Part shown: in pieces, positions 59-9,786 of the stretch
Layout of the letters: each line of letters starts with the position of its first letter
Position numbering within the stretch: position 1 is the stretch's first letter
From: Bdellovibrionota bacterium
Lineage (GTDB): Bacteria > Bdellovibrionota_C > UBA2361 > JBIKWN01
Reading direction: 5' to 3'
NCBI GenBank assembly: GCA_044356295.1
Contig: JBIKWN010000032.1
Span: 1 to 29,128 of the forward strand
Length of the DNA stretch: 29,128 nt
Program-made: the position numbers and the translations under genes
The notes under the pieces: model-generated
Databases searched by the model: none
Told to the model about the DNA's origin: nothing
The model's input: only the letters and a program-made list of their open reading frames with translations

Positions 59-1015
59 TCACCGTAAAAAAAGAAACCAGCTTAGGAATAAAAATAAGGA
101 TGCTCCGATAAAAAAGATAATACCATAGAGCAAACGCCGCTCTGTATCATTAAGATCTTCAAAAAAAATAACAATATCAGAGAGACTGAAACTAGTTGAT
201 TTTACAGAAGCAACTGGACGACCGAATGCTACTTCTTCAGCAGGATTTGAATCATCATTATTTGTACTTCCGAATCGAAGTTTTGCATATCGCTCTGGAT
301 CAATAAGAGTCGTTTGATTTGGACCAAATACAGTCGCTCTTTGTACCGAAGCTTCACTTTCACCACCAACAAGATCCGTTACAACTTTAGCTCGTTCTAC
401 ACCACTGACCTGTTTATTGCGCTCTCCTTCAGCAACAGCAAGCTTTCCAAAAACAACTAAGAATTGAAAATCTCCACAAACAATGACATCACCTGCATTG
501 ACAAGGGTATTATCCGAAAGTCGAACGCCATTTCTCAGTACGAGAGCAGAAGGATCTTCAAACTCGACATACAGCCCTCCATCTTTTAATTCAAAAGAGA
601 TCCCAAACTCTGTAACGATAGAACCATCAAATGAAGCTGGGTCCAATTCCACCGTTTCTGATTCTCCACGAAGAGCAAAAAGCCTAAAGCCGGATGGTAA
701 TGTCGGAAGTTCTTTAGAATAACAGTGAACTTTAAAAGCCATATCTGCAAACTGCAAAAAATCACCATCCTTAATTGATGCAGGAATGCCTCCAGCTAAT
801 TTAGTACCGTTTATCCAACTTCCATTGGTACTGTGGAGGTCTACGATCACCCATCCCGAAGTAAAAGGTAAAAAAATTGCGTGTCTTCTTGAAAAAGCGT
901 CATTCGCTAAAGGGATATCTGTCGTTAAATCTCGACCAATAACATAAGAACGAGCAACTAAGTCCATGAAATGACTACGTTTTCCGTCTTCAACTATTTC
1001 TAAAACTAATTTCAT
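59..1015 (-). CDS. FHA-domain protein (canonical FHA + degenerate second FHA + C-terminal TM anchor)
   Basis: IGRD...SRRHA...DLHSTNGSWING carries the FHA GR / SxxH / NG motifs. A second FHA-like end is seen at RNGVRL...NAGDVIVCG. Hydrophobic C-terminus LLYGIIFFIGASLFLFLSWFLFL. Confidence 0.85.
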   Translation of the reverse strand: MKLVLEIVEDGKRSHFMDLVARSYVIGRDLTTDIPLANDAFSRRHAIFLPFTSGWVIVDLHSTNGSWINGTKLAGGIPASIKDGDFLQFADMAFKVHCYSKELPTLPSGFRLFALRGESETVELDPASFDGSIVTEFGISFELKDGGLYVEFEDPSALVLRNGVRLSDNTLVNAGDVIVCGDFQFLVVFGKLAVAEGERNKQVSGVERAKVVTDLVGGESEASVQRATVFGPNQTTLIDPERYAKLRFGSTNNDDSNPAEEVAFGRPVASVKSTSFSLSDIVIFFEDLNDTERRLLYGIIFFIGASLFLFLSWFLFLR

Positions 1016-1058
1016 CAGAACTAACTTAAGGGTGATTCGACCCCTTATGTTAGCGGTC

Positions 1059-1307
1059 TTAGCGCTCTTCGAGCAAGTTTTGAAGCGTCTGTAAAATTAC
1101 CGCGACGGCCCGGTACAGTTGGACTGGTATTGGTTCACCTTCATCTAAAACAGAGAGCGAACGTGCCAATGATTCATCGTAAATAACAGGTATTTTATAT
1201 TTTTCTGCATACAATAAGATTGAATCAAGCTGGGAGTGAGGCTCGTTAAGATCCACTAATGGAACACCATCAAGTTCCTCATCAAATCGCAGGGATAAGA
1301 CTGGCAT
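1059..1307 (-). CDS. Stand-alone FlhB/SctU C-terminal (CC) domain protein (FlhX/YlqH-like)
   Basis: LSLRFD...AEKYKIPVIYDESLARSL...GEPIPVQLYRAVAVIL matches the post-NPTH region of FlhB/YscU (ALxYD...A...IP+vE+..LAR.L...G..IP.ELY.AVA.+L). Confidence 0.8.
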   Translation of the reverse strand: MPVLSLRFDEELDGVPLVDLNEPHSQLDSILLYAEKYKIPVIYDESLARSLSVLDEGEPIPVQLYRAVAVILQTLQNLLEER

Positions 1308-1409
1308 TTAATTTTAAACCTATAATCTAATTTATTATCGTGTAAAAGTTTCGTATATTGAGTATTCGAAATATATACGTATCAAGTTTCCGCATTTAAA
1401 GGATTAATT

Positions 1410-1811
1410 ATGAGTTTGGCAAAAGAATTTAAAGAATTTGCAATGAAAGGCAACGTTGTCGATATGGCAGTCGGGGTTGTTATTGGGGCTGGTTTTGGAA
1501 AGATTGTGACCTCACTGGTCGCAGATATTATCACCCCTCCTCTTGGATTACTTATTGGTGGTGTCAATTTTTCTAATCTTAAATTAGTTATTCTAGAAGC
1601 TGTAGAAAAAGCTCCGGCAGTATCTATTAATTACGGTCAGTTCATTCAAAGTATCTTTGATTTTACGATAATGGCTGCCGCATTATTTTCAGTTATAAAA
1701 GTAATTAATCGTCTCAAGAAAAATCAAACTCAAGAAGAATCTCAACCTGCAGCACCAACAGCTCAAGAACTACTTCTTACTGAGATTCGAGATATTCTTA
1801 AAAATAAGTAA
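1410..1811 (+). CDS. mscL: Large-conductance mechanosensitive channel MscL
   Basis: [58 protein letters not shown] upstream. Confidence 0.98.
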
Positions 1812-1829
1812 TTATTTTCAAAAAATCGA

Positions 1830-3176
1830 TTAATAGACACCCTGTGCCAGCATTGCGTCAGCTACTTTTATAAAGCCGCCAATGTTGGCACCGTCAACAT
1901 AGTCAATATATCCTGGTGATTCGGTTCCATACGTTACACATGTATCGTGAATTCGAGACATAATCGTTCTAAGTCTGTTATCCACTTCTTCTCTCGTCCA
2001 AGAAAGTCGCAAACTATTTTGCGACATCTCTAATCCTGAAACAGAAACTCCACCGGCATTAGCGGCTTTTCCTGGTCCAAATAAAATTTTTGCATCTCTA
2101 AAATGTTCGACTGCTTTTAATGTTGAAGGCATATTTGCTCCTTCTCCAACTGCGAGTACTTTATTTCTCAATAATGTTAGAGCATCGTGCTCATCAAGTT
2201 CGTTTTGTGTAGCGCAGGGAAAGGCAAGATCCGCTGAAACTCCCCATGGTCGTTTGCCAGCTGTATACTCGGCTTTAAATTTTTTTGCGTACTCTTCAAG
2301 TCGGCCACGTTTTATATTTTTGAGTTCCATCACCCATGCTAATTTTTCTTCGTTAATACCATCTTTATCAAAGATAAATCCAGAAGAATCAGAAAGGGTT
2401 AGCACTTTTGCTCCAAGTTGAATTAATTTTTCTGCAGCATATTGTGCGACGTTTCCTGAACCTGATACGACTGCGCTTTTTCCTTTCATTGATAACTGTT
2501 TTGTTTTGAGCATTTCATCAACAAAGTAAACACAACCGTATCCTGTTGCCTCTGGACGAATCAGACTTCCACCAAAATTTACACCTTTTCCTGTAAAGAC
2601 TCCGGTAAATTCATTTCTAATTTTTTTGTACGCACCAAACATGTAACCAACTTCTCTTCCACCAACTCCAATATCACCAGCTGGGACATCGGTATCTGCT
2701 CCAATATGTCGAGACAACTCACTCATAAAAGATTGGCAAAATCGCATTACTTCTCTATCCGACTTACCATGAGGGTCAAAGTCGGCCCCACCTTTACCAC
2801 CTCCCATGGGAAGGGTTGTAAGACTATTTTTAAATACTTGCTCAAATCCAAGAAACTTTAAAACACCTTGCGTAACAGTAGGGTGAAAACGAATACCACC
2901 TTTATATGGTCCAATTGCGTTATTAAACTGCACACGGTAGCCCCTATTTACTTGAACATTGCCTTTATCGTCTTCCCAAGCAACTCGAAAGGAAATTATT
3001 CGGTCGGGTTCAGTAATTCTTGCAAGGATATTTGCATTTAAATATTGAGGATTTTTTTGAACGTATGGATATACAGATGACATTACTTCATGAACAGCTT
3101 GATGAAATTCAGGCTCTCCAGGATTTCTTGCGATAATAGAATTCATGTAGGAATTGAGCTGATCATTGGTTTTCAT
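1830..3176 (-). CDS. gdhA: NADP-specific glutamate dehydrogenase
   Basis: EPEFHQAV, GPYKGGIRFHP, MGGGKGG, DVPAGDIGVG, RPEATGYG, GSGNVA, GKAANAGGV. 448 aa; GAGG RBS. Confidence 0.97.
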   Translation of the reverse strand: MKTNDQLNSYMNSIIARNPGEPEFHQAVHEVMSSVYPYVQKNPQYLNANILARITEPDRIISFRVAWEDDKGNVQVNRGYRVQFNNAIGPYKGGIRFHPTVTQGVLKFLGFEQVFKNSLTTLPMGGGKGGADFDPHGKSDREVMRFCQSFMSELSRHIGADTDVPAGDIGVGGREVGYMFGAYKKIRNEFTGVFTGKGVNFGGSLIRPEATGYGCVYFVDEMLKTKQLSMKGKSAVVSGSGNVAQYAAEKLIQLGAKVLTLSDSSGFIFDKDGINEEKLAWVMELKNIKRGRLEEYAKKFKAEYTAGKRPWGVSADLAFPCATQNELDEHDALTLLRNKVLAVGEGANMPSTLKAVEHFRDAKILFGPGKAANAGGVSVSGLEMSQNSLRLSWTREEVDNRLRTIMSRIHDTCVTYGTESPGYIDYVDGANIGGFIKVADAMLAQGVY

Positions 3177-3285
3177 AGAAATACCTCGAAAAAAATATTA
3201 TTTCGTATCCGTGGCGAATACTAACCTAGGGATAGGTGGTAAAGAAATAACATTTTTTCACCAGAACTCAATTTTTCCTAGCTAT

Positions 3286-3301
3286 TGCTAAATCCTTGCC
3301 G
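3286..3301 (-). promoter_or_regulatory. Candidate sigma-54 (-24/-12) promoter upstream of gdhA
   Basis: Minus strand reads CGGCAAGGATTTAGCA: GG and GC at the exact GG-N10-GC spacing of TGGCACG-N4-TTGCW, about 110 nt upstream of the gdhA ATG. Confidence 0.4.
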
Positions 3302-3308
3302 TTTTATT

Positions 3309-6300
3309 CTAAACAGAAACAGGTTCTATCTTTGGTGCAGTTCTTCTCAATCCAAGAAGGCGCTTAACTGTTGATTGCAAACTCCAAACTCCTAATGATT
3401 TTTCTATTACTTCAAGATCACTGACTTCACCAATCATGGCTACCATTGAACTCCACCGCTGAGAATCAACACAAGAGATAATAAATTTAGATCGTGGATA
3501 CTGGTCACGAAGTGAGCGAATAAATCCAAGCAGTTTACTCTCTTCTTTTTCAGCATCAAAAACAAAAACAACTGAATTATCTTTATAGAGAGCTGCAGCT
3601 CGAGCTTGAAGATTACTACTGTCTAATAAACTTTCAGTCTTAACACCGTCAGCATAAAGACCAGATGTAATCGCATTTGAGGTAAGGCTATCAATTCCTA
3701 TAAAGATTACTCTAATCTGAGAATTGACAGTATCTTGATGAGATGAAGAACTATCTTTAACACTATCAGGCTGAATAGATGTTACCGAGGCAACTTCACG
3801 GGTTAATGGTAAGTAAATTGTAAATGCTGCACCCTGATTGAGCGCACTGGTCACGGTGATAATTCCATCATGTTGCTTAATGATTGAATAAGCAGACGAT
3901 AGACCAAGCCCTGAACCACTTAAGCCAAGTCCTGTTGATTGATCAACTGATTTTGTCGTAAAGAAAGGTTCAAATATTCGAACGAGTTTATCTGAATCGA
4001 TACCAGGACCATTATCATGAATTTTAATTGCTACATACAAGCCAGGTGCAAGCTCTGGGTGTACTTCACCAGAACCTAATCTGATTGCAGAAGCATGTAA
4101 TATTATGCGAGCAGATTTTAATGAACCTTTTTTCTCGAGAGCTTCTTTGGCGTTCACAATAATATTTGAAAGTGCTCGTTGTATCTGCCCTTCATCTCCG
4201 TAAATTGAACGAAGCCCTGGTTCAATAGTGGATACAAGTTCAATATTTTCTCCAAGCATCGAACGATATAATTCAATTGAATTTTCCAAAAATGATTCAG
4301 CTAAAAACGTTTTCTTTTGAAGATTAGCGTTCGTAGAGAAACTTTTTAGCTGTTGAACTAAACTTGCTCCTCGAGTTGCAGACTCATTGATGATCCGCGC
4401 AGCTTTTGTAAACGGAGATCCCGCACCAGCTTGAAGTTCAATAAGAGAGGCTTGTCCCATAATTGCCTGCAGAAGATTATTGAAGTTATGAGCAACTCCA
4501 TTTGCAAACATAGATGCCATTCTCATTTTTTCTGCATCAGCAATCCTCGATTCAAATCGTCTCGCAAGAACCAAGGAACCAAGTTCGTTACCTAAACTTG
4601 TCAGCAATGGAAGTTTTCTTTGTGCATACGTTGGGGAAGAAACAACTGGCTCAAGCACAAGAAGCCCAATAACTTGCCCCAGAGCAACAAGTGGTACAAG
4701 GCAAAGTGTTGCTGGCTGTAAACGTTCAAAAATTCTGTTTAATCCAGAACATTCAATTTTATCACCCTGTTTAACGACAATAGGTTGTCTGTTTTTTAAT
4801 GCTTCGTCCAAAAAATCATGACGCAAATCGAGCTCTATTTGAATTCGTGCTATTGAACTCCTCATGCCAGGGCCTATCGCAGATTGTCCAGCAATCACTG
4901 TGCCTTGATCATTCAATACACCAAACCACATTCTTTTACATGGAATCTCTTCTTGAATAATCGGGAATGCATTTTCAGCAATATCTTTCGGTGTTAGATA
5001 CTGTGCTAATACATGACTTAATCGATATAAAAATGCTAACGCATCAGAAGTTTTTCTTTCCGTAGCAAAAAATTCAGACTGACGAAGGACAGAAGCGATC
5101 TGTTTCGCTCCTACATCTGCTACTTCAAGATCTTGTGCTGTAAATCTTGATGCACGTCGTGCAAACAGCGCTATTACTCCCCTTGTCCCATCTTCGCTAT
5201 TGAGAGGAACAATAAGCGCAGCTCTCATATACGCTAAGGTTGTTGGTTGCACTCGATCCCCATCGAGTGCTGTATCCCCTGAAACTATAATACCCTTATT
5301 CTGGGTTATCACTGATCGATAAATTGATTCACGAGGAAGCCTATGTTGAAATTCAATCACATCGCCACTCGAAAATCCTTCAGTCGCAGCAATATCTAAA
5401 CAACCACTGGCTTCATCAAGTAAAATACACAGTGCACACTCTGCCGAAGATGCTTTCATCAAAGCTCGTATCCCAGTTAAGAGAAGCATTGATGGTTCCA
5501 TCGAAACTGTCAGACTTTGAGAAATATCATAAAGGGCAGCAAGTCGCTTCTGTTCAGATTGTAATGCAACTTGAATCGAGTGCTTGTCTGATATATCAAC
5601 AGCAAACCCTTCCCATCCTATAAATTTCTCATCGGATGCATAAAGAGGAACGCCACGTATCAGTAATCGCTTTACCTCTCCTGTTTTTTTATTAATAACT
5701 CGTATTTCTTCTTTAAGATCTGTTTGTTTCGTCTCACCCGCGCGAACCAACTTCATCAAGATTCTCAGATCAGTTGGAGGCACAAATCGCTCCCAGACAC
5801 CAAGATCACTTACCAGTTCACCTGCAGTGACTCCAAAGATCGACTCAGTATCACCGACAACATCTGTAACAACTCCAGATGCATTTGTACGAACGATAAT
5901 GATATTTCCATATTCTAAGAGCCGTCGATATTGTAGCCTTGCTTCAAGGAGTCGGTCTCGGTACAGCTCATCGTTTAAATCTTGAGCTCCTGTTGGTTCT
6001 TCTTGAACAGTAGCTTTATTAGATGAAAGTGCATTTTGGTGCTGTTCAAGATACATTCTTGAATACTCAGCAACAATATCTAAAAGAAATATCTCTTCTT
6101 TTCGAAATCGATGAAAATTAGTTCGGAAGTGAACTTCAATCCAACCAAATATTTTTGTTGCAGACCGAATAAGTACTAATGCGAAAGATTGAGTTTGCCG
6201 CTCTTCGAGAACTTGCAGTAATGAAAGTGGTGCTCTTGATAAATTAATATCGTTAATAAAAATCGATTCATGGATCGGCTTCCCTCCAAAAAGTATATTC

Positions 6301-6521
6301 TCATCCTGACAAACGACAGGAAGTACACTTTCATCTCCGCGCTCACCCCAACTTTGACTATAACGTTCCGAATTTTTAACAAACGTAACTTGTATGAGAT
6401 CGCCGCCTAATTCTTTTGCAAGAACGGTTGCACTCGTTTTCAGAATAGCATCGTACGAATCGGCACTTTTAAAAAGCCGATGCAGTTCTGCGATAAATTT
6501 TGCTGCTCCGTCTACTAACAT
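3309..6521 (-). CDS. Cytoplasmic hybrid sensor histidine kinase (GAF-PAS-GAF-GAF-HisKA-HATPase-atypical receiver)
   Basis: H-box GVAHNFNNLL, N-box NIIVNAKEA, DNGPGI, IFEPFFTTK, GSGLGLS. PAS/PAC segment (IRGVPLY...GWEGFAVDISD) and GAF segments (ALIVPL...GVIALF, LVPLVALGQVIGLL). Divergent receiver-like C-terminus. ATG at 6521 is preferred; TTG at 6533 is an alternative. Confidence 0.92.
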   Translation of the reverse strand: MLVDGAAKFIAELHRLFKSADSYDAILKTSATVLAKELGGDLIQVTFVKNSERYSQSWGERGDESVLPVVCQDENILFGGKPIHESIFINDINLSRAPLSLLQVLEERQTQSFALVLIRSATKIFGWIEVHFRTNFHRFRKEEIFLLDIVAEYSRMYLEQHQNALSSNKATVQEEPTGAQDLNDELYRDRLLEARLQYRRLLEYGNIIIVRTNASGVVTDVVGDTESIFGVTAGELVSDLGVWERFVPPTDLRILMKLVRAGETKQTDLKEEIRVINKKTGEVKRLLIRGVPLYASDEKFIGWEGFAVDISDKHSIQVALQSEQKRLAALYDISQSLTVSMEPSMLLLTGIRALMKASSAECALCILLDEASGCLDIAATEGFSSGDVIEFQHRLPRESIYRSVITQNKGIIVSGDTALDGDRVQPTTLAYMRAALIVPLNSEDGTRGVIALFARRASRFTAQDLEVADVGAKQIASVLRQSEFFATERKTSDALAFLYRLSHVLAQYLTPKDIAENAFPIIQEEIPCKRMWFGVLNDQGTVIAGQSAIGPGMRSSIARIQIELDLRHDFLDEALKNRQPIVVKQGDKIECSGLNRIFERLQPATLCLVPLVALGQVIGLLVLEPVVSSPTYAQRKLPLLTSLGNELGSLVLARRFESRIADAEKMRMASMFANGVAHNFNNLLQAIMGQASLIELQAGAGSPFTKAARIINESATRGASLVQQLKSFSTNANLQKKTFLAESFLENSIELYRSMLGENIELVSTIEPGLRSIYGDEGQIQRALSNIIVNAKEALEKKGSLKSARIILHASAIRLGSGEVHPELAPGLYVAIKIHDNGPGIDSDKLVRIFEPFFTTKSVDQSTGLGLSGSGLGLSSAYSIIKQHDGIITVTSALNQGAAFTIYLPLTREVASVTSIQPDSVKDSSSSHQDTVNSQIRVIFIGIDSLTSNAITSGLYADGVKTESLLDSSNLQARAAALYKDNSVVFVFDAEKEESKLLGFIRSLRDQYPRSKFIISCVDSQRWSSMVAMIGEVSDLEVIEKSLGVWSLQSTVKRLLGLRRTAPKIEPVSV

Positions 6522-7227
6522 CTCGATCAACAATAATTACTTTAGCTTGCTTCACTCGCATCTCAAGCGATTCATGAACAAAGGCTCTTTGGAGACTTTG
6601 TCTTTTCGCTTTGACATGCGGATCACCTTCGCTATCTTTGAGCTCATCCATAAGCTCTTTACGGTCCATGCGCATTCCTTGTAAGTGTTTTCGTTTCTGA
6701 ATCCACCAATCACCGATGCTCATTACAAGTCCGACACTCACTAAAAATAGTAGTGTACGAAATGTAACTCGGTGCATAAGAACTGGAATAAGAACTACTA
6801 TTCCTAAGATAAGAAATAGTGCCTGTTGCCAGCTATTCACCACTGCACTCCACAGCTTTGTCATTCCACCTGCGAATCGAGATTCAGTGCTATTATATAT
6901 AGCGCCTACATATACTCTTCCGCCAAGCTGAACGAATTCAACTGTTACAAAAACCGTTGCTATGATTGTTATGAAGAAACCAGCACTAGTGAGCGCTAAA
7001 AAAACGAGGGGTAGAAAGACTCCACTAGGGTTAAGACCCGTCGAATTCAAACAATAGCTTACCTGAGCTTTTAGGAAGTCCAAAACTGAATTTTGAAGAA
7101 GATAAATCAAATAAAATCCAATACTTAGCCCTACTTGAGATTGAAGCATTAAAGACTTTGAGACTTTTCCCTCTTTTCTCGCCCTTAACAGACGCTTAGG
7201 AGAAGCTGGGAATTGCTTAGAAGACAT
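6469..7227 (-). CDS. sctU: SctU/FlhB-family export switch protein, N-terminal (TM + CN) part only; no NPTH, no C-terminal domain
   Basis: N-terminal KQFPASPKRLLRARKEGKVSKS and MRMDRKELMDELKDSEGDPHVKAKRQ are FlhB/YscU signatures. VKQAKVIIVDRD aligns to VxxAdVVitNPTH, and the ORF stops 13 codons after DRD. Confidence 0.85.
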   Translation of the reverse strand: MSSKQFPASPKRLLRARKEGKVSKSLMLQSQVGLSIGFYLIYLLQNSVLDFLKAQVSYCLNSTGLNPSGVFLPLVFLALTSAGFFITIIATVFVTVEFVQLGGRVYVGAIYNSTESRFAGGMTKLWSAVVNSWQQALFLILGIVVLIPVLMHRVTFRTLLFLVSVGLVMSIGDWWIQKRKHLQGMRMDRKELMDELKDSEGDPHVKAKRQSLQRAFVHESLEMRVKQAKVIIVDRDVSRRSSKIYRRTASAF

Positions 7228-7861
7228 ACCCCCCCAAGCCTAATGAAATCAAAAAAATAACTTTAAAAAGGAAGCTAAGCTCATGAAGGGGTATCTGCTG
7301 CAAGGAGCGAGATAGTGAAGCAAAATACAGTTCAATTATGAGAAAAACACCAAAAATCCAACCATAGGTCATAAAATATCCTTGGTAGATTGAAAGAAGA
7401 GATGGAAGCATTTCCCACAGATATCTTATGACATCTGTTACGTTAAGAAGTGGATCTTTGTTTAGTCGAGCATACATTGTAATAAAATATTCAAAGCCCG
7501 CGCCTTGGACTAAAAAAAAATAGCAAAAGAGCCAACCAACTACTGAAGAACTCGTTGATTCAACCCATTCAGAAAATGGATGAAGAGTACCTCCGATGGA
7601 TACACCTCTCGACATGTCGAGACTTTCTGCAAGATTAGACCAAGCAATTTGCATTATCAGGAATGGTAATCCCGAAATTACACCAAGAATAAAAACAACA
7701 ATCGATTCTGTGATTGATGGAAGCAATAATACTTTTTCAAAAGATGTAATAAATGCAATTGAAAAAATCAAAGATATTGAAAATCTCAAAAGAACAGATG
7801 TACTTCCAATGATCGGAAGTAAAACAATGCAACCTGAAAAAAAAAGAAAGGGCAAAATCAT
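7217..7861 (-). CDS. sctT: SctT/FliR-family export apparatus protein (divergent, short)
   Basis: Multi-TM protein between sctS and sctU. GVISGLPF...AESLDMSRGVSIGGTLHP resembles the SctT G..iD.qRG...+.P motif; LSRSLQQIPLHELSFLFK resembles L+R..PQ+....+.+.+K. Start placed at ATG 7861 (ATGA overlap with the sctS stop) rather than the longer ORF start at 8110. Confidence 0.78.
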   Translation of the reverse strand: MILPFLFFSGCIVLLPIIGSTSVLLRFSISLIFSIAFITSFEKVLLLPSITESIVVFILGVISGLPFLIMQIAWSNLAESLDMSRGVSIGGTLHPFSEWVESTSSSVVGWLFCYFFLVQGAGFEYFITMYARLNKDPLLNVTDVIRYLWEMLPSLLSIYQGYFMTYGWIFGVFLIIELYFASLSRSLQQIPLHELSFLFKVIFLISLGLGGYVF

Positions 7862-8106
7862 GACGATGCAATCATTGTAAAGACTGATTCCGTAAAGGTA
7901 TTCACTAACTCCGCAACATAGGTACCGGTAAAAAAAATAATGCCGATTATCGAAAATAATTTCACAAGAAATAAAAGAGACTGCTCCTGAATCTGAGTTA
8001 CAGCCTGAAGAAACGATATAATCAAAGAAATAACAGTTGTACAGATAAGGGGGATGATACAAATTATTGAGAACAATTTTAAAAGCTCTAAAAGCAGCTG
8101 ATGCAT
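7858..8106 (-). CDS. sctS: SctS/FliQ-family export apparatus protein
   Basis: 82 aa, with the FliQ/YscS signature SFLQAVTQIQEQSLLFLVKL. Confidence 0.92.
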   Translation of the reverse strand: MHQLLLELLKLFSIICIIPLICTTVISLIISFLQAVTQIQEQSLLFLVKLFSIIGIIFFTGTYVAELVNTFTESVFTMIASS

Positions 8107-8111
8107 ACAAT

Positions 8112-8777
8112 CTACCTATACGAGAGAATAAGAGATTTCATTAGTAGAGACCAACAATCAGATGAGAAAAACAAAAGAAGCTTCAACGGCAATCCGATTG
8201 TTAAAGGATTTACCATATGCATTCCGAGCCCTGCTAATACATTACAAATAATCAGATCTACCAATAAAAACGGTAACAGAAGAAGTACACCAATTCGGAA
8301 AGCATCTTTGAGTTCCGTTAGCAAAAATGATGGGAGTAAAACAATCCATGCTTGGATGCTGGATGGGTTATCGAGCGATGACATATCTTTTTGAATATCA
8401 ACTGTACCGCGAATTGTTTGAAATAAAATTTTACTCTCATAACTTGAGTGTTTTTTAAGAAATGAAAAATAAGGTTCTGCGATATGAAATACTTTTTGTT
8501 GTTCAATTTGACTTGTTAAAACATCCTCAAATTTTGGTTTTTCAATTGCTGTGCGGTTGATCATCTCTGTTGCTACTGGCTCAAAAATAAAAAGAGTCAT
8601 TACAAGACTGAGAATACTTACAATCAGTGCCCCTGGAACCGCTTGAGTACCGAGTGCATTTTTAATAAAGCTCAGAACGATATGTATCTTCAAATAAGAA
8701 GTGCACCCCATTAAGAATATAGGTACGACCGACAAACACAGTGACAATAAAAGTAGCTGCATTGGATCAGTCTTCAC
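8112..8777 (-). CDS. sctR: SctR/FliP-family export apparatus protein
   Basis: CTSYLKIHIVLSFIKNALGTQAVP and LPSFLLTELKDAFRIG...PFLLVDLII.NVL..LGMHMVNPLTIGLPLKLLLF. No FliP-type N-terminal signal extension, which favours injectisome-type SctR. GTG start overlaps the upstream stop (GTGA). Confidence 0.93.
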   Translation of the reverse strand: MKTDPMQLLLLSLCLSVVPIFLMGCTSYLKIHIVLSFIKNALGTQAVPGALIVSILSLVMTLFIFEPVATEMINRTAIEKPKFEDVLTSQIEQQKVFHIAEPYFSFLKKHSSYESKILFQTIRGTVDIQKDMSSLDNPSSIQAWIVLLPSFLLTELKDAFRIGVLLLLPFLLVDLIICNVLAGLGMHMVNPLTIGLPLKLLLFFSSDCWSLLMKSLILSYR

Positions 8778-9493
8778 GGCTGATCCTCATGAGCAATGGT
8801 CAGATTTGATAACTCTATATCATAACGACGCAGGTTTTCGGTGATTATATTTTTATTTGAATCAATCTTCTTAAATGGCAGATCATCCTGCGTTACTACA
8901 GAAACAGTGATAGCTTGATTATTGGCGACCGATGCATGAACCATTACAGCATGTTCGGAAGAAGATATTATTTTTGCACGTACAGCATCAGGAATAATTT
9001 TTTGAAATTCAATGCTGGTAGTTACAGGGGCGCTACTATTCTGAATAATAGATTGCGTCTGATAGAGAGGAACATCCTTTGAATAATCGATAAAAACTTC
9101 TGCTACATCTTCTTGTTGTATTTCCTCTCGCAACTCTTTCTCTTTGACTCTATCAAAATGTATCCTATCGTTAATCAGCTCGTGCTTGGATTCGTTATTT
9201 TTTAGAATACGCACTTTTTCATTTTGAGAGTCTTGGATACTTTTAAGTTGCGTTTCTTGAGTTATCTTTTTTAGCGCTATAACCTCTTTGCTCTTTGATA
9301 GTATGCCAAATACACTGCTATTTTTCGCTGAAGAGAGTTGATCTCCGATTTTTTTCATCTCTTCTTTATTGACCAAAAGAGATTGTTTGACTTTCTGATA
9401 CTCTTTGCCCAATAATTTTATTTCTAAATTATTTTTTCTTAATTCAGTCACTAACTTTCGATTCAGAATGGGCATGATTTTATCTGTCGTCAT
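8774..9493 (-). CDS. Putative SctO/FliJ-like coiled coil fused to an SctP/FliK C-terminal-like domain
   Basis: N-terminal ~135 aa are a Lys/Glu-rich coiled coil ending KHELIND...EKELREEIQQEDVA, similar to FliJ/YscO ends. The C-terminal VMVHASV...ITVSVVT...KIDSNKNIITENLRRYDIELSNLTI has the beta-beta-alpha-beta pattern of FliK_C/T3S4. Located just upstream of sctR. Confidence 0.5.
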   Translation of the reverse strand: MTTDKIMPILNRKLVTELRKNNLEIKLLGKEYQKVKQSLLVNKEEMKKIGDQLSSAKNSSVFGILSKSKEVIALKKITQETQLKSIQDSQNEKVRILKNNESKHELINDRIHFDRVKEKELREEIQQEDVAEVFIDYSKDVPLYQTQSIIQNSSAPVTTSIEFQKIIPDAVRAKIISSSEHAVMVHASVANNQAITVSVVTQDDLPFKKIDSNKNIITENLRRYDIELSNLTIAHEDQP

Positions 9494-9786
9494 GCCGAAC
9501 CTTGTTGAAGTTTTTTAACAGTTGAAGAGGCAGCTTCAGCACATTTACTGACCATTTCCATCTGAATTTGATACCGATGGCATATCGCCTGTGTTTGTAA
9601 CAGCTCTTGAGGGGCTATCTCTTTTTTTCCTAGTATAATTTGGTCGACTTTTTTCTGTATGTCTCTAAAAGAGAGGCCCTTTTCGTTAGAAGCAAAATTA
9701 TCAAAATGAGAAGAAATTTTGCCGGAAGGAGTATTATTTAGGTTTGGTAGCTGAAATTGTGCTTTCATACCTTTATCTTCGAGCAT
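9490..9786 (-). CDS. SctI (PrgJ/YscI/HrpB2) inner-rod-like protein
   Basis: C-terminal IAPQELLQTQAICHRYQIQMEMVSKCAEAASSTVKKLQQ matches the rod/needle-family pattern sP.eLL.+Q.....+...+E+.sK.......+..L. First gene of the sct operon. The start may be the ATG at 9768 (AAGG upstream). Confidence 0.65.
   Translation of the reverse strand: MLEDKGMKAQFQLPNLNNTPSGKISSHFDNFASNEKGLSFRDIQKKVDQIILGKKEIAPQELLQTQAICHRYQIQMEMVSKCAEAASSTVKKLQQGSA

Follow-up and report, generated by a model that had tools for sequence, protein, structure and literature searches.

A secretion-gate SctU encoded by two genes, split at the NPTH cleavage boundary and usually separated by a histidine kinase gene, in Bdellovibrionota

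The split sctU locus

We analyzed a 29,128-base stretch of DNA (the window) from a Bdellovibrionota bacterium, which is the entire contig C71 of its genome (G000; 2.96 Mb in 128 contigs, 93.6% complete), and focused on two minus-strand genes that encode two parts of SctU, a member of the FlhB/SctU family of type III secretion. In crystal structures, the cleaved N-terminal (CN) and C-terminal (CC) chains of this family form one compact domain. The cleavage itself, at an NPTH motif, splits FlhBC into CN and CC and has been reported as required for switching (PMC7911332, PMC7064499). In the window, the two parts and the gene for a sensor kinase that lies between them are arranged as follows:

6469-7227, minus strand: N-terminal part of SctU, U(N), 252 amino acids (aa), with transmembrane domain, EGDP linker helix and beta-strand 1 (KVIIV), without NPTH
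3309-6533, minus strand: cytoplasmic GAF/PAS/GAF histidine kinase of about 1070 aa, start at 6533 or 6521
1059-1307, minus strand: CC part of SctU, U(CC), 82 aa, with strands 2-4 and the helices of the switch domain

Both open reading frames (ORFs) have the coordinates and content given by a first-pass annotation made from the letters of the window. U(N) matched Pfam PF01312 (FlhB/YscU family; E 2.3e-30) over positions 2-104 and 149-256, including the conserved N-terminal motif and ending at position 256 of 335, and U(CC) matched the same profile at positions 264-334 (E 7.8e-8), with both halves clearing the cut-off of 24.4 bits. U(N) also aligns to Salmonella FlhB, and its residues 185-233 align to the CN chains of autocleaved FlhB, SpaS and EscU (3b0z_A, 3-51 of 52; 3c01_A, 1-47 of 48; 3bzl_A, 6-52 of 54), with the alignment stopping at the final residues of these chains. 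Similarly, U(CC) residues 4-73 align to CC chains (3b1s_B, 6-76 of 87; 3c01_E; 3bzl_C), starting at chain residue 6. Because the CN and CC chains align to separate ORFs, the gene boundary coincides with the boundary at which cleavage separates N from PTH. The membrane domain and the CC subdomain are thus encoded by separate ORFs, with 5.2 kb between them here and 0-3.8 kb in relatives.

The cleavage motif itself is absent. None of the 23 U(N) and none of the 23 U(CC) orthologue sequences aligned contains NP[TS]H, and a six-frame scan of the window gave no in-gene NP[TS]H, with two chance occurrences outside gene frames. In the CC orthologues, an aromatic residue or His is common at the position of the H of NPTH, N and P are lost, and the residues conserved in FlhB/SctU are kept; in the U(N) orthologue alignments, linker helix and strand 1 are always retained. 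The first-pass annotation had U(N) ending shortly after VIIVDRDV without NPTH. The missing motif holds, but KVIIV is followed by DRDV and 15 further residues, i.e., 19 past the strand. The DNA of this tail also encodes the beginning of the kinase in another frame, and conservation of the tail is limited to the genus (tails of 1-20 residues among the 23 orthologues). The same annotation had likened the M-P start of U(CC) to a natural cleavage product with an N-terminal Pro. This argument fails because the CC of the same-genus genome G002 starts M-A; the M-P start is thus not conserved even within the genus, and other relatives start with MK, MS or MT and have 6-12 extra variable residues before the first strand.

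The sequence across the break was compared with DNA contigs from two other lake-water metagenome studies, for which no insertions, deletions or joints were reported. The contig of run X2 matched positions 6297-6902 and that of run X4 positions 6347-6618, both with 0 differences and no indels, and X2 also spans the whole CC gene (900-1314) with 0 differences. This identity rules out the misassembly or frameshift near the junction that had been raised as a concern at first pass. Run X1, which covers the whole stretch, was not counted as independent because it is probably the source run; it alone covers the intergenic positions 1315-1395. The related genome G002 (57-62% protein identity) has its locus on two contigs, with sctR-sctS-sctT-U(N)-kinase at the end of one and gdhA-mscL-CC-FHA on the other. 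Contigs of X3 and X4 part from the window shortly into mscL, where they have loose ends at 1421, 1423 and 1453, and related lake populations therefore differ at the mscL/CC junction.

Conservation of the two halves across the order and class

Having located the break, we evaluated its distribution in 40 related genomes (2 of the genus and 38 of the order, from 21 families). U(N) was detected in 37 of the 40 and CC in 35, and in 31 a single contig carries both halves on one strand, CC being downstream. Relatives therefore share the split. Together with the absence of NP[TS]H and the position of the break, this co-occurrence bears out the first-pass idea of a pre-cleaved, two-gene SctU.

Twenty of the 31 linked loci were examined gene by gene. 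The typical order is sctI, an sctP-like gene, sctR-sctS-sctT, U(N), histidine kinase, U(CC) and a gene for an FHA protein, with U(N) directly after sctR-sctS-sctT except in family f7. The kinase gene lies between U(N) and CC in 18 of the 20 (for 4 of these, CC was seen only in the CC search of relatives), so that the kinase, treated as incidental at first pass, is in fact a conserved gene of the locus. In f7, a shorter kinase (551-579 aa) stands between the halves, and the three genes form a unit with unrelated opposite-strand flanks, away from sctRST. The other two loci belong to family f3 and lack a kinase gene between the halves, U(N) and CC sharing 4 bases there. A search of three f3 genomes (completeness 89-96%) found no kinase orthologue, the best matches being 1e-26 and 1e-24, and G035 giving no match. 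At these two f3 loci (L063:4465-6168 and L066:5252-7006; no kinase or FHA gene), a gene for an M12/reprolysin-type metalloprotease converges on CC.

The arrangement extends beyond the order: of 12 loci examined in other orders of the class, 11 show U(N)-kinase-CC, in most cases with the FHA gene next (CC was not seen in the twelfth). This recurrence indicates that the kinase-in-middle arrangement is ancestral to the class, and the f3 state is most simply explained as a loss. The gene gdhA was found at this position only in the window's genome and same-genus G002, and the presence of gdhA and mscL is most simply explained as a later, genus-specific insertion. Stop and start codons often overlap at both the U(N)/kinase and the kinase/CC junctions, CC frequently sharing 4 bases with the kinase stop, and CC belongs to the same operon in most relatives. 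An intervening gdhA and opposite-strand mscL are confined to this genus, and independent regulation of CC, which the first-pass annotation had suggested, is not the general design.

In a phylum-level sample of 96 genomes, at least 63 of the 95 other genomes had a match ending at profile position 255-258, and no second full-length family member was found in those genomes among the matches listed. A U(N) profile was also searched against 1.84 billion representative proteins, and the best 150 matches were all 193-290 aa long and matched nearly end to end. Word-indexed protein searches reached few relatives, and we place little weight on them for the distribution outside the class. Additional small CC-like ORFs (89-118 aa) were observed on contigs other than those of the split pair (G025:C176, G015:C3, G007:C51, G006:C130, G004:C140 and G013:C6); they may be true stand-alone CC paralogues.

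The kinase between the halves

The kinase contains the Pfam domains GAF, PAS_3, HisKA and HATPase_c, and is probably active, because 23 orthologue sequences show no variation in the H-box His or in the N, G1, F and G2 boxes. No convincing membrane segment was detected in it (the single strongly hydrophobic stretch, 605-633, falls inside a GAF domain), and Pfam searches of its ends revealed no receiver domain, with the N-terminal 190 aa giving a weak GAF match (E 0.028) and the C-terminal 154 aa giving no Pfam match. No response regulator is encoded within the window. The constant position of the gene and its tight coupling to both halves point to a functional link between kinase and switch. 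We hypothesize that the kinase might bind the switch directly; a co-fold of the cytoplasmic end of U(N), the CC and the 626-aa kinase of genome G051, with the kinase as scored partner and without controls, gave 0.00 in both runs (mark 0.32).

Flagellar FlhB and the type of secretion system

The genome was checked, as suggested at first pass, for a full-length FlhB/SctU with NPTH. One is present, a 375-aa FlhB in the flagellar cluster on contig C128, with FliP before it and FlhA after it, whose top NCBIfam model, flagellar flhB, gives 334 bits, slightly short of the cut-off of 349. The small CC protein follows the U(N) operon rather than this gene: five genomes (92-96% complete) without a full-length FlhB match all keep U(N) (positions 2-256), four of them show CC (260-333) on the U(N) contig, and in the fifth, G033, CC was seen weakly in a separate search. 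Because the split pair persists in genomes without full-length FlhB, CC is not a flagellar accessory.

About 10 of the 96 sample genomes had no full-length FlhB match (e.g., G020, G022, G033, G042 and G046; further examples are G054, G056, G061, G065 and G075), which suggests non-flagellate lineages within the class. A second U-like ORF, shorter still than U(N), was observed in five FlhB-less genomes (G020:C3, G033:C8, G046:C3, G056:C32 and G042:C5), with frames of 206-268 aa covering profile positions from about 2-170 to 2-237; none was seen in the window's genome.

The SctR of the window passes the EscR/YscR/HrcR model NF009438 (192.8 bits, cut-off 179) and scores better there than with fliP. 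In a genome 93.6% complete, where absence is not proven, no SctC-type secretin (best TIGR02516 match 118 bits, cut-off 238) and no SctF needle (best PF09392 match 15.6 bits, cut-off 29.4) was found above cut-off. On these grounds, the system of the window is non-flagellar and apparently needle-less.

Other type III secretion system (T3SS)-like loci were observed in the same genome. Contig C94 (L074:311-8158) carries two FHA/YscD-type proteins, SctJ, a SctQ-like protein, a short SctR (173 aa) and SctS, and no U-family gene; C18 (L073:8243-13224) carries a sigma factor, a SctJ-like protein, a 620-aa SctV and a TPR protein; and the second T3SS ATPase of the genome is on C38. On C100 (L072:9919-17764), a non-flagellar SctV gene stands directly after tadB-tadC and before the gene of a HEAT-repeat protein, with cpaF upstream in this genome. 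The TadB/TadC-SctV order was present in 20 of 20 loci (this genome and 19 relatives of 19 families; L113-L132), and the HEAT protein was seen in 17 of them.

Neighboring genes and a candidate switch partner

The remaining genes of the operon, and those that interrupt it, are the following:

9490-9786, minus strand: SctI-like inner-rod protein, 98 aa, at the head of the conserved operon
8774-9493, minus strand: 239-aa protein with helical hairpin and C-terminal domain, between sctI and sctR, probable T3S4-like
8112-8777, minus strand: SctR, 221 aa, non-flagellar type (Pfam FliP, E 2.4e-48)
7858-8106, minus strand: SctS, 82 aa (Pfam Bac_export_3, E 1.3e-14)
7217-7861, minus strand: SctT (Pfam Bac_export_1, E 1.3e-7 on residues 83-288 of the long ORF)
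1830-3176, minus strand: gdhA (glutamate dehydrogenase, by Pfam), genus-specific insertion outside the system
1410-1811, plus strand: mscL (by Pfam), genus-specific insertion on the opposite strand that breaks the operon
59-1015, minus strand: FHA-domain protein, 318 aa, with C-terminal hydrophobic anchor, conserved last operon gene

The SctI-like protein has weak matches below cut-off (PF17001, E 4.9e-4; TIGR02497, E 4.3e-4), and a positional orthologue lies upstream of sctR in most related loci. For SctS, the SctS model outscores the FliQ model, both below cut-off. The sctT start is likely the ATG at 7861, as the longest ORF reaches 8110 and overlaps sctS. The FHA protein, whose gene follows CC in related loci, has Pfam matches to FHA (E 5e-16) and Yop-YscD_cpl (E 6.7e-9) and a hydrophobic segment at 293-318, and resembles the cytoplasmic end of SctD. 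The remainder of the contig holds housekeeping genes.

The gene at 8774-9493 is a candidate partner of the switch. Its structural model has a long helical hairpin and a C-terminal alpha/beta domain, and this domain was folded alone because the hairpin swamped the fold search with the whole model. AlphaFold2 (AF2) modeled the C-terminal 95 aa with a predicted local distance difference test (pLDDT) of 85 and a predicted template modeling score (pTM) of 0.70. Foldseek ranked 5cuk, the SS domain of PscP, first (E 0.066, probability 1.00, template modeling (TM) score 0.57, root-mean-square deviation (rmsd) 2.4 over 68), and VIA-align likewise placed 5cuk first (Z 7.4, 78 aligned, rmsd 3.2), followed by the FliK C-terminal domain 2rrl (Z 6.0), with both Z values below 8. 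PscP-SS and FliK-C are the two T3S4 domains with solved structures. Pfam Flg_hook matched 3 of 15 positional orthologues weakly, all below cut-off (best E 4.8e-4); the window's own protein had no Pfam match. Judging from the modeled fold, the gene likely carries the T3S4 substrate-switch domain of SctP/FliK. In known systems this domain acts on the CC domain, and its probable presence between sctI and sctR suggests that the switch function has been retained.

Alternative explanations

The simplest objection is that an assembly error, a frameshift or a recent pseudogenization of a normal sctU has produced the two ORFs, as might be suspected of a contig from a 128-contig genome that is 93.6% complete. 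The identical contigs of other studies, the same break point throughout the class and the lack of in-gene NP[TS]H in any frame of the window refute this explanation and leave its probability close to nil. It is also highly improbable that the 82-aa gene is a CC paralogue of the FlhX/YlqH type serving flagellar FlhB, next to an unrelated truncated remnant of 252 aa. Stand-alone CC proteins do form a known family (TIGR00789), and a full-length FlhB with NPTH is indeed encoded on C128, adjacent to FlhA. The window CC, however, scores 26.8 bits with TIGR00789 against a cut-off of 117.35 and better with the SctU model; it is linked to U(N) and not to flhB in the 31 relatives, the pair persists in genomes without full-length FlhB, and truncated U(N) is a large family of uniform length. 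This explanation is thus largely refuted.

Improbable as well, though less so, is that the genes are truly split and no longer build one switch, U(N) having become a purely structural gate subunit and CC having been recruited as a regulatory domain or adaptor that acts together with the FHA protein or the kinase. CC always adjoins the kinase and FHA protein, it is transcriptionally separated from U(N) in this genus, and the three-gene unit of family f7 has moved away from sctRST. Yet the linker helix and strand 1, which would be roleless without CC, are retained in U(N) throughout; f3 keeps U(N) and CC adjacent, with no kinase orthologue in the three genomes searched; and CC retains the residues conserved in FlhB/SctU.

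Several observations have to be set against the favored reading, a SctU that would be assembled from two gene products. Both halves score far below the cut-off of the full-length SctU model TIGR01404 (358 bits), with 78.2 bits for U(N) and 40.2 bits for CC, for which it is nonetheless the best NCBIfam match. With 16-39% identity to the other copies, the window CC is one of the more divergent ones, and its N-terminus is shorter than that of relatives. With the queries used, 3 of the relatives gave no U(N) match and 5 no CC match. In this genus, an opposite-strand gene and a 102-base gap without a promoter consensus precede CC: a promoter scan of 900-3500 found 8 sites against 6.6 expected, and none on the minus strand in that gap. 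The genome also holds two further SctV genes (C18, C100) and a second SctR/S set (C94). All 21 of 21 related records with names, which come from a search with a five-sequence SctR alignment and are labeled Bdellovibrionota, Bdellovibrionales or Deltaproteobacteria, are metagenome-assembled genomes. Finally, that the U(N) and CC products would assemble is expected from homology.

Comparison with known systems

Autocleaving FlhB/SctU proteins (YscU, EscU, SpaS and HrcU) share with the split protein the Pfam family, the place after sctR-sctS-sctT, the N-terminal motif, the EGDP linker, strand 1, the fold elements of CC and a two-chain (CN and CC) end product. They differ in that here there is neither NPTH nor a single precursor, and two genes, usually with a kinase gene between them, take their place. 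The stand-alone proteins of TIGR00789, which we take to be FlhX and YlqH, are alike in being small proteins that correspond to the CC part of FlhB alone. Unlike them, the window CC fails TIGR00789, is tied to a CC-less partner and is kept without full-length FlhB. An engineered counterpart also exists: Minamino and Macnab in 2000 reportedly restored function by co-producing Salmonella FlhB without CC and free FlhB-CC, i.e., two separately made polypeptides with the same split site. The split described here is natural, class-wide and without the NPTH residues.

Among natural cases, the nearest precedents we found are other core T3SS components made from two genes, i.e., the secretin RhcC1/RhcC2 and HrcQA/HrcQB, sometimes with another gene between them, as described in PMC3574062; these are other components, and neither break replaces a self-cleavage reaction. 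FliR-FlhB fusions (NCBIfam NF009411, a model among the NCBIfam matches) also rearrange the genes of this export-gate component, in the opposite direction (fusion vs split). In gene content, the system resembles the needle-less T3SS* of Myxococcus xanthus, a member of another predatory lineage, in having a non-flagellar T3SS-like gene set with no secretin or needle detected. Such Myxococcus systems are included in the survey of Abby and Rocha (PMC3459982), and the T3SS* has been reported to work with the Tad-like Kil system (PMC12428579). The SctV-Tad linkage recalls this Kil/T3SS* pairing, here within one operon (20 of 20 loci).

A proposed model for the two-gene switch

Taken together, the locus is very probably the export-gate operon of a non-flagellar, apparently needle-less T3SS-like machine whose SctU is supplied by two genes. 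U(N) would provide the membrane domain, linker helix and beta-strand 1, and U(CC) the remainder of the small cytoplasmic switch domain. By strand complementation, the two products would build the two-chain domain that other systems obtain through autocleavage, and no cleavage chemistry would be needed because the NPTH loop is gone. The assembled halves would then act as the specificity switch of the gate. In the ancestral arrangement of the class, U(N), histidine kinase and U(CC) are tightly packed, and gdhA and mscL entered between kinase and CC later, in this genus. The tight packing, with stops and starts that often overlap, suggests that U(N), kinase and CC are made together, and the kinase may have some role in the switch.

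A further possibility, which we consider rather unlikely, is that the split makes a one-shot switch resettable, with the kinase as part of it. In flagellar FlhB, the cleaved CC has been reported to hold the gate in an early mode, and its FliK-dependent ejection to make the switch irreversible (PMC13344023, 2026). A separately encoded CC is replaceable, and the switch could therefore be resettable: after ejection by the SctP-like T3S4 protein, the gate might be re-armed with fresh CC at each prey contact. The kinase, co-translated between the halves, would sense whether the gate holds CC; alternatively, it would use phosphorylation to govern secretion and the supply of CC, perhaps by way of the FHA protein that is always encoded after CC.

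Conclusions

The split SctU is a genuine form of the SctU switch, of ancient origin and apparently not described before. Searches of open-access full text turned up no naturally split sctU or flhB and no description of a sensor kinase tied genetically to a secretion switch in this way. Why FlhB/SctU has to cut itself has been debated for two decades, and this lineage constitutes a natural experiment on the question. The split fits the proposal that CC is an ejectable, inhibitory part of the gate, as put forward recently (PMC13344023). Overall, the locus marks out a widespread and unstudied secretion-like machine in predatory Bdellovibrionota, in which the NPTH chemistry has been dispensed with and its outcome, two chains meeting at the same strand, would have been kept, suggesting that it is the separable CC subunit that matters and not the cleavage reaction.

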